The notes beneath the pieces are model-generated. The model ran no database searches. It was given only the letters and a program-made list of their open reading frames with translations, and was not told the origin of the DNA. DNA of 34,004 nt, from IMG/VR virus record IMGVR_UViG_3300025084_000105, positions 1-34,004 of that record; one strand, 5' to 3'. A program made the position numbers and the translations under genes. The stretch comes from a virus (taxonomy: Duplodnaviria; Caudoviricetes). This document shows, one piece after another, positions 2,799 through 12,644 of this stretch (its first letter is position 1; each line of letters starts with the position of its first letter).

Positions 2799-2867
2799 AA
2801 AAATATTTTTCAAAAAAATTATAATATATTCCGTGAGGTGCTAGGCGGGGGGTGGCTACCAAAAAAT

Positions 2868-2999
2868 CTAGTTTTTGGCAACTACTTCAAAATTACGAGT
2901 CCAAAATAAACACATATCCGACCGATAAACTTCAAAAGTTTTTCCGGTTTTTTTATTGCGTAGCGTTATTATAGTATAGTCATCGGGCGTGTTGCTCAT
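2868..2999 (-). CDS. Small hypothetical protein (43 aa, MSNTPDDYTIITLRNKKTGKTFEVY...)
   Basis: Translated by hand. A TATA-like TTCATAAG lies ~30 nt upstream on the minus strand (leaderless spacing). Confidence 0.55.
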   Translation of the reverse strand: MSNTPDDYTIITLRNKKTGKTFEVYRSDMCLFWTRNFEVVAKN

Positions 3000-3217
3000 A
3001 TACTGTGGTCTATCTTTTCCCTTATGAACTTAACGGTGTAGCATTCTCTTATTGACTAATTCGGAAGGTTTATATACCCCCAGCCCATCGGAGACACGTA
3101 CTACTACACCATGCGAGGCGGTGCAATAACTACACTAGGTAATAAAATAAAACTACGATAAAATAAAATAAAGATAAAATGACGGTGCAGTTTTTACACC
3201 ACACCGCCAAATTAATT

Positions 3218-3454
3218 TTACCAATCTTCTTTAGGTTGGTCTCTTACTTTTATTGTCCAATGTGTACTATAATAATTCCACTTTTCGGACTTGAATACTA
3301 AGTTAGGAAACTTAGTCCTCAAATGTTTCAAGTATGTCCTAGCATCCTTGAAATGAAGGCTCTCAGTGCCTTCAATACTGCTTCCTATCGTTATGCCTGT
3401 TTTTTCACTAAAGGAGTGCCAATGACTCCATGTATGGTTATTGTCTCCGTACAT
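3218..3454 (-). CDS. Hypothetical protein (78 aa, starts MYGDNNH)
   Basis: Minus-strand GGCAACCTTATATACC lies ~29 nt before ATG 3454, so the start was shortened from the ORF track. Confidence 0.65.
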   Translation of the reverse strand: MYGDNNHTWSHWHSFSEKTGITIGSSIEGTESLHFKDARTYLKHLRTKFPNLVFKSEKWNYYSTHWTIKVRDQPKEDW

Positions 3455-3643
3455 ATGCTTCCGTGCGGATGGGGGTATATAAGGTTGCCTATGTAGCATT
3501 CTGACCCCATACCCACAGGGTCGAGACCTAATCATCCTCAACGTAAGACAGACAGTATATAGTCTTTCCGTTATACTATTCTCTTAATACTATTCTAATG
3601 TCTACATCGGCAACCTTATATAGTACCCCCCCGTGGGATAAAC

Positions 3644-3850
3644 ATGGAAGCAGAAGTAAGCATTACCTACACGACAACGATAACCGAAGATAGTATGACA
3701 GAAGAAGAGTTTAGAGACTATATAGAAGCGAAACTATTTAGAAGCCTAGATATTGGGATTGGATATGCGGATGAAGAATCATGCGAGATAAATATTGAAG
3801 AACAATGGTGGGAAGATAAGGACTTATACGGGGAAGATGAAGAAGAGTAA
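3644..3850 (+). CDS. Small highly acidic protein
   Basis: TATA at 3615 and ATG 29 nt later. D/E-rich. Confidence 0.75.
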   Translation: MEAEVSITYTTTITEDSMTEEEFRDYIEAKLFRSLDIGIGYADEESCEINIEEQWWEDKDLYGEDEEE

Positions 3851-3880
3851 TCTTTATATACCTAACCCCCCTAGCATAGA

Positions 3881-4089
3881 CTGTAAGAGACACACCCGAA
3901 CAAGTAGGCGGGAGACACACCCGAAAACGGCCGAACAGTAAGGCGTATCAATTACACCTGCCACATCTTAGATGTGGAGAGGTAAGGCCGTTGAATGGCG
4001 GTGTTTAGGTAACGCCTATTCGGGATTCATCATCCCCCCTCTTAAGCCTTCGCCCCTACTGATGAGGGGGCGAGGGTTGCAGACTTTTT
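3881..4089 (+). ncRNA. Candidate ~200-nt structured non-coding RNA
   Basis: Own TATA at 3853 with no ATG at the expected start. Nested helices 3895-3910/4013-4024, 3926-3932/3986-3992, 3961-3967/3971-3977 and 4046-4057/4066-4077, then a T-tract. Confidence 0.6.
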
Positions 4090-4279
4090 CTAATATAACA
4101 ATGTTTATATACCCCCATCCCGTCAGAGGCACGGGGTGGACACATATTTTTTTACGGGGGGTATATTGGCCTTGCCTAATCATACTCAACGTAGTGCAGA
4201 GGGTATATAGTCTTTCGCCTCTTGAGGTCTCACTTTACTATAATCGGCAGGTTTATATACCCTTACCCCTTCGGATAGA

Positions 4280-4384
4280 ATGAGCAACATGAGCCGAATG
4301 AATGAGATACTAAGAGAATTGATAAACAAAGGGTTTATAACCAAAGACGAACACGACAGTATATCCCTAGAGTGGGAGTTTTAA
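4280..4384 (+). CDS. Microprotein (34 aa, MSNMSRMNEILRELINKGF...)
   Basis: Translated by hand. TATA at 4252, ATG 28 nt downstream. Confidence 0.55.
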   Translation: MSNMSRMNEILRELINKGFITKDEHDSISLEWEF

Positions 4385-4396
4385 GGAGTGAGGAAA

Positions 4397-4537
4397 ATGG
4401 AAAGAAATGAAATAATAATAGGATTGATTGACGAGAGATTGCAGGAATTAGTTGAGGGTATGCCTCATCTAACAGAGGAAGAATGTGAAGAGTACGCTCT
4501 TCTATATCTTGAACGTGAGGAACAGATTAGGAAATAA
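4397..4537 (+). CDS. Acidic microprotein (46 aa, MERNEIIIGLIDERLQEL...)
   Basis: Translated by hand. GGAGTGAGG RBS upstream and a hairpin/T-tract downstream. Confidence 0.6.
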   Translation: MERNEIIIGLIDERLQELVEGMPHLTEEECEEYALLYLEREEQIRK

Positions 4538-4551
4538 GACGAAAACGAATT

Positions 4552-4584
4552 GAGGGGGGTGATTTTCGCCCCTCTCTTTTTTTT
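4552..4584 (+). terminator. Hairpin plus T8 terminator
   Basis: GAGGGGGGTGA-TTTT-CGCCCCTCTC followed by TTTTTTTT. Confidence 0.7.
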
Positions 4585-4713
4585 GTGATTGTATGATAAT
4601 AATGTTTATATACCTACATCTCATCTCAGGCACGGGGTTGGGTACGAGAAACGCCAACACGGGCGAGAATCTCTTATCGGCATCTTTATATACCCTAACC
4701 CCCTCGGATGTTC

Positions 4714-4839
4714 ATGGCGAAGATACAACCATGCGATGAATGCGGCGGATATGATTTTATTGAGAGAAAGGGCTACTTACCTATATGTGAGTTTTGTTCT
4801 TCGTGGGGCTTTATACCCCCTGTCTTAGTAGTTGAATAA
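4714..4839 (+). CDS. Zn-ribbon microprotein (41 aa, CDEC...CEFC)
   Basis: Translated by hand. TATA at 4685, ATG 29 nt downstream, hairpin at 4845-4871 after the stop. Confidence 0.65.
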   Translation: MAKIQPCDECGGYDFIERKGYLPICEFCSSWGFIPPVLVVE

Positions 4840-4877
4840 GATGGAAGGGGGGATTTCTCCCCCCAACCTTCTCAGCC

Positions 4878-5093
4878 TCAGAAGAGGGGTTCTATCCAAG
4901 CCTCGCCCATTTTGGGGCGAGAGCATTTTTTACAGAACATATATTGATGACATCGGTCATATACTTGCTCTGATGTTTGGGCGTTCTCTATTTCTTTTTT
5001 AGGTGCGTTATGGTTTGCGTGGTGTGTGCAATCTTCGCACATCCCATCAACTCTCCATGCCGCTTCCATTATTGGCGGGTGTATCTTCGTCAT
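4878..5093 (-). CDS. Small Zn-finger protein (CEDC...CKKC)
   Basis: ORF track, AAGGAG RBS, two CxxC pairs. Confidence 0.65.
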   Translation of the reverse strand: MTKIHPPIMEAAWRVDGMCEDCTHHANHNAPKKEIENAQTSEQVYDRCHQYMFCKKCSRPKMGEAWIEPLF

Positions 5094-5148
5094 GTTTTCG
5101 TGTCTCCTTTTTTTCGTTTCGCTTTGCGTTTCAAGTCCTTACCATATA

Positions 5149-5259
5149 TTATTTTATATGCGACTTAGTTTTATCGAACCATTTTTTGCTTATAGTCCTT
5201 TCGTCTCTCTGTGTACTTTCTTTATATACTCTTAATAATTTTGAGTCTATCCGTACCAT
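5149..5259 (-). CDS. Basic microprotein (36 aa, MVRIDSKLLRVYK...)
   Basis: Translated by hand. AAGGAG RBS, downstream of the 5321 minus-strand TATA. Confidence 0.45.
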   Translation of the reverse strand: MVRIDSKLLRVYKESTQRDERTISKKWFDKTKSHIK

Positions 5260-5320
5260 TTTTCTTATTCTCCTTGTCGTATTTTGTCTATACCTTACAG
5301 GGCTTCCGAATGCGTTTCTC

Positions 5321-5440
5321 CTTATATACCTTTCGTTTTTAACCCCTTATATACTTTACGGTTTTAACTGCTTATATAGTTTTCGGTTTTAACCCCTTAT
5401 ATACCTTTCGGTGCTTTTAACCCCTTATAACCTTTTCGAT
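5321..5440 (-). repeat. Five tandem ~25-bp units, each a BRE-TATA on the minus strand (consensus CCGAAAGGTATATAAGGGGTTAAAA)
   Basis: CTTATA starts at 5321, 5346, 5371, 5396 and 5424 (periods 25, 25, 25, 28). Confidence 0.85.
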
Positions 5441-5635
5441 AAGTTTATATACCCTTTTAATTGAGACGGTTTTATAATAAGGTTTATATACCTACATCTC
5501 ATCTGGTATGGTGTAAGTGGGGCGACCGGATAGGTTTATATACCCTAACCCCCTCTGGTATGGACTAAATGAGCAGAGCCGACCGAATCGCTACCTTTAT
5601 AACCCCTACCCCCCTAGCATAGACGAGGAAGTAGT

Positions 5636-5860
5636 ATGGTATTAGAAACCCGACTAGAAATTGAAGCCCAACAACGAACGCTAACATTGGATAACAGCAG
5701 CGTAAGACTTGCTAAGTCCTTTTGTGAAACTGCTTTAGAGCATTTCGCTAACGGTGAAATAGGCCGTGCTTTGACTTGCGTCAGCCTAGCGAGTGAGTTT
5801 AGACAAGATGCTCTTGATGCACTAACGCATGAAGAAGTAATGAGACACTTTAACGAATAA
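5636..5860 (+). CDS. Hypothetical helical protein
   Basis: ORF track. TATA at 5596, GAGG RBS, hairpin and T-tract at 5885-5919. Confidence 0.7.
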   Translation: MVLETRLEIEAQQRTLTLDNSSVRLAKSFCETALEHFANGEIGRALTCVSLASEFRQDALDALTHEEVMRHFNE

Positions 5861-6119
5861 GACGACAGCACCCGACAACGTAAGCAGTCGGCCTCTAAAC
5901 GGGGTCGGCTGTGTTTTTTAGAACTCTATATAATAATGTTTATAAGGGTTAAGCCCATCTCAGATGCAAGACGATGACAAGGCGACAACGGGATAATATC
6001 GGAGTCCACCCCGTTCCTAAGATGAGATGCGGGTATATAATCTTTATGATATATTATTCTCTTATCATGTGAAAGGTTATCATCGACAGGTTTAATAGGG
6101 GAGAGCGAGTCGGAGTATC

Positions 6120-6284
6120 ATGGCCGCAATAGCAGACATATATGAGACGACATACCACGTTGATTGGAGTATTAAGGGAGAACTGACCGTTTGGCGGGCT
6201 AACTTCCTTGATTATGAGTCATACAATGACTTTGTATCACAAGACGGTATTCAAGTCTTAGAAGTAACCACAACACAACGATGA
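6120..6284 (+). CDS. Microprotein (54 aa, MAAIADIYETTYHVDWSIKG...)
   Basis: Translated by hand. TATA-like TTTAATAG at 6090, ATG 30 nt later. Confidence 0.65.
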   Translation: MAAIADIYETTYHVDWSIKGELTVWRANFLDYESYNDFVSQDGIQVLEVTTTQR

Positions 6285-6333
6285 AAGCCAAAGACCTCGC
6301 AGCCCTTCGGGGCTGTGGGGCAAATTATTTTTT
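6283..6333 (+). terminator. Conserved 3' hairpin element, copy 1 (UUCG loop)
   Basis: GAAAGCCAAAGACCTCGCAGCCC-TTCG-GGGCTGTGGGGCAAAT plus T-tract. A second copy lies at 7437-7481. Confidence 0.7.
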
Positions 6334-6467
6334 CGCTAATAATACGGACTCACGGAAGAGAAGAAAGGCCGGAAAGGTTTATAAGGGAATACGTGGTCTC
6401 CTATGGATGAAATGAGCCAACGGGATAGAATCGACAGGTTAATAAGCAAATACTCACAGGGTCATAT

Positions 6468-6749
6468 ATGAGCCGTAGCAGCCAAACAACGCCCCGCACT
6501 AGAAACGAGATATACGACTTCGTATATGATACATATTGTGAATGGAGAGACAATGACTTTCATACATTCACCCTAATTATTGAAAAGGAATTAGGTGTTA
6601 CATCTGATGAAGTTTATGACTTTTATACTAAATATGCCGAGAATGATTTTGATGAGTTTATTTTACAAATTGTTGCACTAGCAATCATTACCCATAATAT
6701 CGAAAGAATGATTGGTATGTCGCTCGATGAATTACATCCGAATCTTTGA
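6468..6749 (+). CDS. Acidic hypothetical protein
   Basis: ORF track. TATA-like site at 6439 and a GAAA-loop hairpin at 6748-6780. Confidence 0.75.
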   Translation: MSRSSQTTPRTRNEIYDFVYDTYCEWRDNDFHTFTLIIEKELGVTSDEVYDFYTKYAENDFDEFILQIVALAIITHNIERMIGMSLDELHPNL

Positions 6750-7089
6750 GATAGTTGGGGAGAAATCCCCTTCTATCTTTTCACGCTATAACTACGGACT
6801 CACGGAAGAGAACGCACTTTGAAAGGGTTTATATACTAATACCCCGTATGACATGGACTAAATGAACCAACGGGAAGAGAGACCCCTTAATAATAATCTT
6901 TATAAGGGTTAAGCCCATCGGGTATGGGCGAAGTGAAATCGGGGCGAGTGAGAATACTATAACCGAAAGATTATATACCCCCAGCCCTTCGGGTATGGAC
7001 TAAATGAGTAATCGGGGCGGAATAGAAGGGTTCTTAAGCAAATACGTTTTCGCTAAGATTGCCCGCAGAGGCATAAAGGAGACGATAAA

Positions 7090-7407
7090 ATGAAACAGAC
7101 AGTAAATGAATATGACTTCGTAAGAAGTTTTGATGAAATGAACAGAGAAAGCAATTTCTCAAGGGCGGGCAGGTTTGCCCTCTTTGAGTATTTAGAGGAA
7201 GTGTACGGAGACGATTACGAACTTGATGTAATCGGTATCTGTTGCTCATTCAATGAGTATGAGAGCCTTGAGGAATACAACGAGGCATACGGTACAGAAT
7301 ACGAGGAAATATATGAGATTGAAGCATTAGTATGTTCTGATTATGGCTACGACAACGGAAACACAGACACCGAAGTTTATAACGCATTCATAACTTACGA
7401 ACATTAA
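7090..7407 (+). CDS. Highly acidic phage protein (possible DNA mimic)
   Basis: AAGGAG RBS. The NFS..G..ALFEYLEE...ELDVIGICC pattern recalls an uncharacterised phage early-gene family. Function is inferred only from charge. Confidence 0.75.
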   Translation: MKQTVNEYDFVRSFDEMNRESNFSRAGRFALFEYLEEVYGDDYELDVIGICCSFNEYESLEEYNEAYGTEYEEIYEIEALVCSDYGYDNGNTDTEVYNAFITYEH

Positions 7408-7436
7408 GCCGATAGAGCCAATTTAAGCCCAACAAC

Positions 7437-7481
7437 GAAAGCCTAAGACCTCGACCCCCCTCTTGAGGGGTCGGGGCAAAT
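7437..7481 (+). terminator. Conserved 3' hairpin element, copy 2
   Basis: GAAAGCCTAAGACCTCGACCCC...GGGGTCGGGGCAAAT. Flanks are conserved with copy 1 while the stem sequence differs. Confidence 0.65.
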
Positions 7482-7875
7482 CTTGCGTATAGAGACGGAC
7501 TCACGGAAGAGAAGAGACTCGGAGAACCCTTATATACTGAAACGCTCTCTCGCATGGACTAAATGAGTATCGGGGAAGAGAGAATAGTATAAGGGAAAGA
7601 CTATAAGCCTCAAGCCCATCTTAGAGACGGGGATGGCTACGAGGCGAGTCGCCTTTTTTTCATCATCATCCATTTGAACGGTGTAGATGTACCCTTATAA
7701 ACTTTTGCTTGTGAAGGTCTCTTATTTTTTTAGAGAATGCTTAATAATAATGTTTATAAGCCTTAAGCCCATCTCGACACGGGCAAAATGACACGGGGAT
7801 GACGCTTGTGAGGCAGGGTTCACAATGTTTATAAGCCCCCCGCCCATCTGATACAGGCAAAGTGAGCCGCTTCCA

Positions 7876-8010
7876 TTTTTACACTAACTTTACTTTTTGC
7901 ACTAAGTGTAGTAAAACTCACCTAATGTAATTAAAAACACTTAATGTATGTAAAAACACCTAGTAAAATAAAAAAACCTAGTGTAATTAATGCACTAAGT
8001 GTTTTACTCA
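7876..8010. repeat. AT-rich cluster of CAC(C/T)(T/A)A(A/G)TGT-like repeats at ~20-nt spacing
   Basis: GCACTAAGTGT (twice), CACCTAATGTAAT, CACTTAATGTA, CACCTAGTAAA, ACCTAGTGTAAT. Confidence 0.6.
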
Positions 8011-8107
8011 AAAATAAAAACTAAAAAGGAGATTCTAAAAACATAACCTTTAAGTAGTAAAACTTTCTCTCGACACGGTTTATTGTACACCTGCGACATT
8101 TCCATAG

Positions 8108-9228: not shown

Positions 9229-9576
9229 ATGCAAGAAAATGATAAAAAGTTTTGGTTCAATTTCATAGAAATGGGCTACAAAGTAAGAAAAAATCCGACA
9301 GGAAAAATACAATTTGAAATCAATAATGTGTCTTTTGAGTTAGCACATTCACCACCTGTATTGCTAGAAAATAGAGCAGGACTTGACCCCGAAAAACCAA
9401 TACTATCAAGCGAATGGTTCAGACTATACAGAGTAAAAGAAGAAACGGAATATGGTATGCTCACCACTAGCAAAAAAATGATTGGTAGTGATTTTTATTG
9501 TCTAGGTAGAAAAGATATTCACGATATGGCCGATGATGGGATAAAACATTTGACGCTTGCGAGGCAAGAACATTAA
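9229..9576 (+). CDS. Hypothetical protein
   Basis: ORF track, GGAGAGG RBS. Confidence 0.7.
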   Translation: MQENDKKFWFNFIEMGYKVRKNPTGKIQFEINNVSFELAHSPPVLLENRAGLDPEKPILSSEWFRLYRVKEETEYGMLTTSKKMIGSDFYCLGRKDIHDMADDGIKHLTLARQEH

Positions 9577-11948: not shown

Positions 11949-12095
11949 AACTTAAGGGATTGTTGGGGGGATATAACTAAGTCTTTTGGGCTGTGTTTGT
12001 CATTCGTTTCTATCCTCATCCCCCCAACGCCCACCGACTTACGCTTGCGACACAATAACAAAAAGATTAAAAGGAAAAGACAGGTGGAGAAAAAC

Positions 12096-12644
12096 ATGAA
12101 CATATTTGTATTAAACGAAAACCCCGAATTAGCAGCAAGAGATTACTGTAATAAGCACCTACCTAAGATGTGTGTAGAAATGTTACAGATGTTAGGTAGT
12201 GCCGTGATTAGACACGGTGCAACGCCCGACATGATGCCACTTACTAAAAAAGGTACGCCTCTACGTGGTGGCTACCACAACCACCCTTGTACTATTTTTT
12301 CAGGGGAAACTAAAGACAATTACAATTGGGTTGTACGTCATGCCTTAGAGTTATGTAAAGAATACACAGACAAGTATAACAAAATACATTTTTGTGAGGC
12401 AGGTATTCGTCATCTTAGTAATATGGCAAATCTAATTCCCGAAGGCGACCTTACACATTTTGCTCTTGCTATGCCCGATGAATACAGACCCGAACCCGTT
12501 GATGGAGAGATTGTATATCATACTTATGCGGCACAAGCAGTAGACGCTTACAGACGTTATTATCATAGCAAGGAGTTTGCTCGATGGGATGACCGTAATG
12601 TACCTACATGGTGGCAAAGTTATAGATATGTGGGGTTAGAATAA
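12096..12644 (+). CDS. Pyrimidine-dimer DNA glycosylase / endonuclease V-like protein
   Basis: MNIFVL...A...CNKH..KM.VE..Q, HNHPCT, AMPDEY and AYRRYY match the phage UV-repair-like family. Start at 12096. Confidence 0.75.
   Translation: MNIFVLNENPELAARDYCNKHLPKMCVEMLQMLGSAVIRHGATPDMMPLTKKGTPLRGGYHNHPCTIFSGETKDNYNWVVRHALELCKEYTDKYNKIHFCEAGIRHLSNMANLIPEGDLTHFALAMPDEYRPEPVDGEIVYHTYAAQAVDAYRRYYHSKEFARWDDRNVPTWWQSYRYVGLE

Follow-up and report, generated by a model that had tools for sequence, protein, structure and literature searches.

The window, by which we mean the whole 34,004-nt (34-kb) stretch of DNA analysed here, is an entire virus record; related viral records reach 65–72 kb. By Pfam, it codes for a terminase, a clamp-loader ATPase, a chaperonin, a family B DNA polymerase (PolB) and a PD-(D/E)XK nuclease, with a metallophosphoesterase gene directly upstream of the terminase gene. 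Among annotated phage records, the best matches of the PolB were haloviruses, at 24–25% identity. As markers of group C magroviruses we used PolB, clamp loader, chaperonin and a DP1-like phosphoesterase gene within the structural block, and the gene set portrayed in PMC5434244 is compatible with the Pfam matches of the window. The virus thus appears to be magrovirus-like, with a gene content that fits group C. Its host is presumably a member of the Poseidoniales, a link that, according to PMC5434244, cannot be demonstrated directly. The viral chaperonin shares only 22–33% identity with its matches in five Poseidoniales genomes, and a chaperonin scan across genome contigs gave no match. The window also holds a gene of the pyrimidine-dimer DNA glycosylase family (PF03013) at 11997–12644, a UV-repair function within a surface-ocean virus.

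From 2800 to 8100 the window carries small genes, and one TATA promoter recurs there many times. We counted about 25 copies on both strands, several of them followed by ATGGACTAA (Met-Asp-stop) or by no ORF (5536, 6829, 7530), together with five tandem 25-nt copies at 5312–5442 and a 98-nt unit that occurs three times (6328–6425, 6778–6875 and 7479–7576) with ACGGACTCACGGAAGAGAA upstream of the TATA box as a possible operator. The region looks like one of recombining cassettes, or like a sink for host transcription factors. It contains a second strong fold on the minus strand at 4831–5040 (z −6.0 and −4.6), terminator-like hairpins included. One promoter copy, at 3853, precedes the element studied here, which an initial annotation had proposed to be a structured RNA of about 200 nt with its own promoter and terminator. 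Its features are as follows; homologous loci (L numbers) and RNA runs (X numbers) are described below.

3853..3860, plus strand: TATA box of archaeal type, TTTATATA, one copy of the promoter repeated in the early region
3881..3883, plus strand: predicted transcription start, from the 27–28 nt TATA-to-ATG spacing of ORFs 3644 and 4280
3882..3956, plus strand: variable 5' domain, a long hairpin closed by UGUAA/UUACA, after the minimum free energy (MFE) fold of L028
3898..3906 opposite 3933..3940, plus strand: GAACAAGUA opposite GAACAGUA, within the 5' domain
3912..3925, plus strand: strain-specific 14-nt duplication of 3887–3900
3958..4082, plus strand: conserved core, closed by helix P1 (3958–3961/4079–4082)
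3962..3976, plus strand: P2 hairpin; five of five modelled pairs change on both sides
3977..3986, plus strand: 5' strand of P3, GAGAGG, and UAAG (P3 is 3977–3982/4038–4043); RGAGGU is Shine-Dalgarno-like
3987..4002, plus strand: P4 hairpin, optional, missing in L053
4006..4018, plus strand: P5 hairpin, optional, missing in L053
4022..4036, plus strand: P6 hairpin with the 7-nt loop UUCAUCA (4026–4032), first kissing loop; three of four pairs change on both sides
4038..4046, plus strand: 3' strand of P3 and linker, CCUCUUAAG; CCUCCUAAG in four of eight types
4047..4076, plus strand: P7 hairpin, its loop holding UGAUGA (4060–4065), second kissing loop; seven of nine modelled pairs change on both sides
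4085..4089, plus strand: T5 tract, likely terminator, from the sequence

Using blastn and nhmmer on 78 terminase loci, we detected two homologs: one with 78% identity, lying on the opposite strand (L028, L029, L030), and a remote one (L044). L125, L145, L155 and the near-identical L149 came from pattern scans; the patterns that gave L125, L145 and L155 demanded CCTCYTAAG, and L028, L044 and L053 were found without that demand. A covariance model for which only four clade-2 sequences served as training set, run on 81 sources, gave 69 bits for the window, 61 for L028 and 28 for L053, which was new. In total there are eight distinct homologous sequences from five branches of one magrovirus-like clade, the branches being counted on a quick tree of terminases that are at least 80% identical; only about five independent lineages were sampled. 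The readable flanking genes of the homologs are relatives of window genes. In the pattern scans, 7 of 32, 8 of 16 and 11 of 26 loci were judged by their profile to be the RNA and the rest were put down to chance. Five small contigs whose match looked alike were dropped once two of them (L084, L095) turned out to carry it inside RdRp reading frames. Looser scans yielded no new type, whether among 107 loci (100 scored, all read), at least 119 (100 scored), at least 120 (100 scored, all read), or ten loci of which one was the RNA, L053 again. A structure descriptor run over 1.67 Mb recovered six of the seven known types, missing L155, at a chance rate of 12–14 matches per 0.66 Mb of shuffled sequence; the further candidates it gave were coding or palindromic. 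Poseidoniales genomes gave no instance with model R1 (0/151), model R2 (0/151) or a pattern (0/301), in scans that scored the top 20–34 candidates per genome and had no positive control, and GenBank phage records gave ten short matches at chance level.

The RNA is an accessory element with a patchy distribution: it is present in 4 of 38 viral records and in one of the four near-complete ones (very diverged copies could escape), and its position and strand vary between viruses. No early protein family common to all RNA-bearing viruses was found. In L044 (9010–9330), L145, L125 and L155, the RNA cassette and other early promoters are bordered by palindromes specific to each lineage (CTACATAATGTTATGTAG; CTACAAATTAATTTGTAG), which are possible operators.

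The conserved core contains a four-way junction, and two adjacent arms, P6 and P7, end in loops that are complementary in all types (CAUCA/UGAUG). In L053 the loops read UUAUCA and UGAUAG, so that CAUCA/UGAUG becomes UAUCA/UGAUA, one two-sided change, read by hand, in one lineage; MAFFT misaligns the kissing loop of L053 and the automatic count of two-sided changes in the kiss is therefore zero. P3 is the sole helix that hardly varies, with five of its six pairs invariant across the eight sequences. All types retain a U that is unpaired after GAGG, the UAAG of the junction is invariant, and the main junction is almost free of unpaired bases. L053 is a natural minimal form of ~100 nt (z −5.8), from which P4 and P5 are cleanly deleted to leave a 12-bp arm with a 7-nt loop. 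At that locus (6657–6807) the 5' domain is longer and branched, and the 5' and 3' ends are paired. In the 5' domain, GAACAAGUA opposite GAACAGUA resembles a double loop-E motif; a GGC/GCC stem of this domain is replaced by AAC/GUU in L028 through two compensatory changes. Contigs of the RNA runs X2, X3 and X4 likewise carry paired changes in P5, at 4006 and 4018.

Covariation supports this fold, as the initial annotation had suggested it should if the element were real. When the 3' half was aligned plainly with MAFFT, pairing held in 91.3% of cells and two-sided changes were present in 7 of 18 pairs, values that none of 500 shuffles reached, although related sequences may outscore such shuffles without structure; structures slid along the same alignment pair 38–66%. 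The model-fitted alignment, which leans towards structure, gives 97.3% of cells paired and 22 of 34 pairs two-sided. Two-sided changes occur in six helices. Folded alone by free energy, the core takes the conserved fold in the window (z −5.5 sense, versus −2.5 antisense), L028, L044, L145 and L053, partly in L155 and not in L125, and the sense strand has the better z in six of seven types. We conclude that the conserved, covarying RNA structure is real. In three dimensions, the P6 and P7 loops would be expected to pair and to clamp both arms alongside each other, giving a rigid body without protein.

The shape that had been read from the single sequence was different. Every pairing listed at the outset is present (CTGTAA 3881/TTGCAG 4077, TAAGAG 3884/CTCTTA 4039, 3895/4013, 3926/3986 and 3961–3977), as is the 14-nt repeat at 3887 and 3912, and 3875–4095 has a folding energy of −82.8 kcal/mol (z −4.7), matched by none of 200 shuffles, with a long bulged rod as its MFE structure. 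The long-range pairings that make this rod each lose one to three pairs in L028 (CCCGAA/TTCGGG keeps 4 of 6, TAGGCG/CGCCTA 3 of 6 and AACGGCC/GGCCGTT 5 of 7), which retains all 7 pairs of the hairpin CCACATC/GATGTGG, one of them through a compensatory change, and 10 of 11 in the 3' hairpin. As the conserved fold, the rod is not supported. The 14-nt repeat, proposed as a means of switching between alternative folds, is missing in L028 and in the X1, X3 and X4 contigs and is no conserved switch. By the nearest-neighbour model, the rod has −82.6 and the conserved fold −72.9 kcal/mol with the repeat; without it, the values are −74.3 and −72.4 kcal/mol, tertiary contacts excluded. Given these energies and the lack of the repeat in L028 and three runs, the rod is largely a product of the strain-specific duplication. 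The advantage of the rod in this strain, ~10 kcal/mol, still counts against the conserved fold here, and the RNA of this strain may misfold or may be rescued by co-transcriptional folding.

The rod had invited a comparison with 6S RNA, which is also about 200 nt long and has its own promoter and terminator, and a decoy for RNA polymerase built as a long bulged rod would agree with the single-sequence MFE structure of this strain. The rod pairs, however, break in L028, and without the duplication both folds lie within 2 kcal/mol; L053 and clade 2 fold as multi-junctions; in the conserved fold a 5' hairpin precedes a multi-junction core with a contact between loops, unlike a rod with a central bubble; the host is archaeal; and Rfam gave no 6S match. 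We regard a 6S-like role as extremely unlikely.

The promoter proposed for the element was borne out. The TATA box at 3853 and the absence of an ATG at the leaderless position were both confirmed, and ORFs 3644 and 4280, which are leaderless, start 28 and 27 nt from their own TATA boxes; we therefore predict the transcription start at 3881–3883. In the homologs a UGU lies 27–30 nt from the TATA box, and in six of seven homolog types a script pattern picked out a TATA-like box at the same distance, the box of L145 being looser. In the L028 homolog near 7510 (minus strand), AUG UAA stands at the predicted start; such RNAs may have originated from promoter cassettes with dead ORFs. At the other end, P7 is followed by UU and then the T tract, and five of seven homolog types have such a tract, L028 and L145 lacking a clear one. 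The idea that the 3' hairpin is a terminator probably holds as far as the T5 tract at 4085–4089 is concerned; a role in termination alone does not fit, given that its loop would pair with another loop and given L028 and L145.

Contigs from four RNA runs (X1–X4, three studies) cover 3785–4349 at depths of 2–3.6. The runs were picked for containing the stretch and so give no evidence of abundance; some of the contigs span the promoter or the T tract, and contigs cannot reveal ends or strand. When 20 kb of coding genes were compared with the same runs, the matches listed included short partial ones in X1, X3 and X4 and diverged relatives in X2. The low depth and the spanning contigs leave room for a reading in which nothing acts as free RNA and the locus is a DNA-level element or a decayed cassette, its hairpins kept for termination or recombination; promoter copies without ORFs and other stable hairpins do crowd the region. 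The two-sided changes in six helices, the G-U pairs, the better z of the sense strand and the clean deletion of an arm in L053 all speak against it, and we consider it quite improbable. The element is likely made as a free, stand-alone RNA of about 200 nt in early transcription.

It also proved to be non-coding. An overlapping ORF at 3972–4283 was rejected as a protein-coding gene, as its start, frame and length are not conserved and it has no Pfam match; the frame ends after 23–50 codons in six of six homologs, and L028 has no ATG. Searches of Rfam returned nothing at gathering score and chance-level hits only at E up to 10. ARAGORN, Rfam and comparisons of features bear out the earlier judgement that this is not a tRNA, SRP or RNase P RNA. 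No Rfam model of a known riboswitch or self-cleaving ribozyme matched; reading UGAUGA as a box of a C/D RNA failed for want of a conserved box D; and resemblances to hammerhead, twister, RNase P and cobalamin RNAs, judged from consensus sequences, had the wrong topology. The RNase P P4 pseudoknot has the consensus GAGGAAAGUCC with CGGCUU on the 3' side. In the viral RNA, GAGGUAAGGCC resembles the 5' part, is missing in L053 and has no conserved 3' partner, and Rfam gave no match; the scans of 151 Poseidoniales genomes with models R1 and R2, at 20–34 top candidates per genome, gave no host source either. The RNA thus appears to be a stand-alone structured viral RNA of new architecture, outside SRP, tRNA, 6S, RNase P, prohead RNA and all Rfam models tested.

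Of the known RNAs, the SRP Alu domain, as described in PMC4231752, comes close in several respects. First, the prokaryotic domain has adjacent hairpins with a short linker and a five-base pairing of loops after a pyrimidine-U, a five-pair kiss following a U-turn. Second, it is protein-free and of tRNA-like size, and it competes with elongation factors (PMC4231752). Third, host SRP RNA copies (Archaea_SRP, RF01857) have a YU-plus-five loop of the same pattern on shorter arms. The differences are equally definite: the arms of the viral RNA are ~5 bp longer and the additional P2 makes a four-way junction, there is no S domain or helix 8 (the SRP54 site), the long hairpin comes before rather than after, and the UGU linker that PMC4231752 places between helices 3 and 4 is replaced by YUAAG, a UGU linker being absent from some host SRP copies as well. 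The hosts keep their own SRP RNA. Identity as an SRP RNA was rejected, as neither gathering score nor E up to 10 gave a match in Rfam and UGU and helix 8 are lacking.

Likeness to tRNA is seen in the second junction. P3 and P6 together make 11–12 bp with a 7-nt loop and so match a tRNA acceptor/T arm in size, the loop starting GGUUCA in clade 2, and P4 and P5 are placed like D and anticodon arms; tmRNA, with its tRNA-like domain (TLD), and YrlA offer tRNA-like domains for comparison. The viral RNA differs in having U for A at position 58, no 7-nt anticodon loop and no CCA end, its ends being embedded in the junction, and ARAGORN found no tRNA gene in the window or in any of 21 loci. A rigid RNA of tRNA size could nevertheless soak up a defence protein, for instance a nuclease cleaving tRNA or the 16S tail, and so keep the infection from being aborted. 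The cloverleaf-like junction with GGUUCA would suit such a decoy, as would a patchy accessory cassette among small early genes (4 of 38 records, five terminase branches); bacterial toxins that remove the anti-Shine-Dalgarno tail provide a precedent, according to PMC12620021 and PMC12274833. Against it, the tail-like strand is paired, ARAGORN sees no tRNA, and no partner protein is common to the RNA-bearing viruses. On balance we hold an anti-defence role to be unlikely, though it stays in contention.

The two arms joined by a kiss allow two further readings. Purine and cobalamin riboswitches have two arms joined by a kissing loop, and this layout, together with UAAG fixed at the junction, would accommodate an aptamer for a small molecule (an immune signal, for example) or a ribozyme; UCCUAAGC resembles a twister loop. 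Rfam riboswitch and ribozyme models, on the other hand, gave no match at E up to 10 or 1, the main junction offers almost no unpaired bases, and the RNA controls no downstream gene, a new promoter following it. We consider this reading improbable. The prohead RNA of phi29 has complementary loops on neighbouring arms and lies near packaging genes, and an RNA of its kind would be expected in every member of a virus group. A packaging or assembly RNA of this kind, with loops pairing between molecules into rings, would account for the two complementary loops on adjacent arms, and the viral RNA does lie 1.3–6.3 kb downstream of the terminase in loci holding both. It is, however, accessory and patchy: it was found in one of four near-complete records only, and neither in the other three nor in close relatives with long early regions. 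Its promoter is of the early type, its position and strand vary and it has no Rfam match, and we find a packaging role very improbable.

The most conserved part of the RNA points elsewhere. The Poseidoniales 16S gene ends in GGATCACCTCCT. Of 25 loci flagged as 16S (30 examined), 24 have AAG directly after it, which gives CCUCCUAAG; this sequence is exact in four of the eight RNA types and one change away in the other four. The 3' strand of P3 with its linker, CCUCYUAAG, equals the last six bases of the 16S gene together with three bases of the trailer. Among the Poseidoniales 16S ends (L561–L590), conservation is also strong just after the anti-Shine-Dalgarno (AAGAAA); the mature 16S rRNA of this order may extend further than usual, or AAGAAA may be a processing signal. 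Since the most conserved part of the RNA copies the 16S tail of the likely host, the RNA may act on the protein-making machinery. Our preferred reading, which we put forward tentatively and short of even confidence, is that this accessory early RNA acts on the host small ribosomal subunit or on factors that handle the 16S tail. The tRNA-arm length of P3 with P6 and the Alu-like layout of two arms with complementary loops are further hints of a role in translation.

How it might do so can be outlined. The virus would make a free RNA of ~200 nt early, behind its own TATA box; the P6 and P7 loops would lock two arms into a rigid, protein-free body like the SRP Alu domain; and P3 would present a copy of the pairing between Shine-Dalgarno and 16S tail. 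P3 could then open and base-pair to the 16S tails of unengaged small subunits, or it could show a mimic of the tail to factors that bind the 16S tail. In either case the leaderless early messages of the virus would be favoured, and the early viral ORFs adjoining the RNA are leaderless. In this specific form, a caged Shine-Dalgarno/16S-tail helix on a kissing-loop scaffold that traps small subunits or the factors maturing or guarding the 16S tail, and so steers translation to leaderless viral messages, the proposal is doubtful. Such a ribosome decoy would parallel the role that 6S RNA has for RNA polymerase.

Several observations weigh against an action on translation. The 16S match was noticed post hoc, and CCUCCU is forced by pairing with GGAGG; three of the eight types came from patterns requiring CCTCYTAAG; UAAG follows both strands of P3, which suggests a structural motif instead; and P3 is buried in the junction and would need to open. 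The virus also uses Shine-Dalgarno sites, which precede 16 of 29 viral starts with at least four matching bases, two of them with eight. Complementarity or identity of the RNA to host 16S or SRP RNA was not above shuffles in 24 of 24 duplex tests and in 11 of 12 alignments.

Large structured RNAs of phages, GOLLD and ROOL, are described in 10.1101/2024.12.08.627333. The present RNA is like them a stand-alone structured viral ncRNA, and differs in its size (~200 nt), its archaeal virus, the lack of Rfam similarity and the lack of a neighbouring tRNA cluster. No structured ncRNA of magroviruses was found in Rfam 15 or in the literature searched under Poseidoniales structured RNA, archaeal-virus kissing loops and anti-Shine-Dalgarno decoys, and the available parts of two magrovirus papers (PMC11706807, PMC10160649) held no ncRNA passage under the terms tried. 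A search of the supplements of the viral RNA screen of Fremin et al. 2023 (PMC10690425), its alignment archives and one table excepted, gave no match, and the family may be among the candidates of that screen. With its covariation, a minimal form of ~100 nt in L053 and a defined loop contact, the RNA is ready to be transcribed, probed and solved without a cultured virus or host. If it does act through the 16S tail, it would represent a new viral route to the takeover of translation and a handle on the competition between Shine-Dalgarno-led and leaderless initiation in archaea.

Two other hairpin arrangements were seen among related loci. In L008 (~9415–9510, minus strand) and L026 (~4530–4630, minus strand), adjacent hairpins with the complementary loops AGCAUCAU and AUGAUGCU lie at the start of a leaderless ORF, and one change there is both synonymous and compensatory; these may form a second kissing-loop element. 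In another clade, a repeated hairpin, CCTACA(A/T)TTTTGTAGG, occurs in the early region of L073 (12380–12480), L074 (15040–15290) and L078 (7540–8000).
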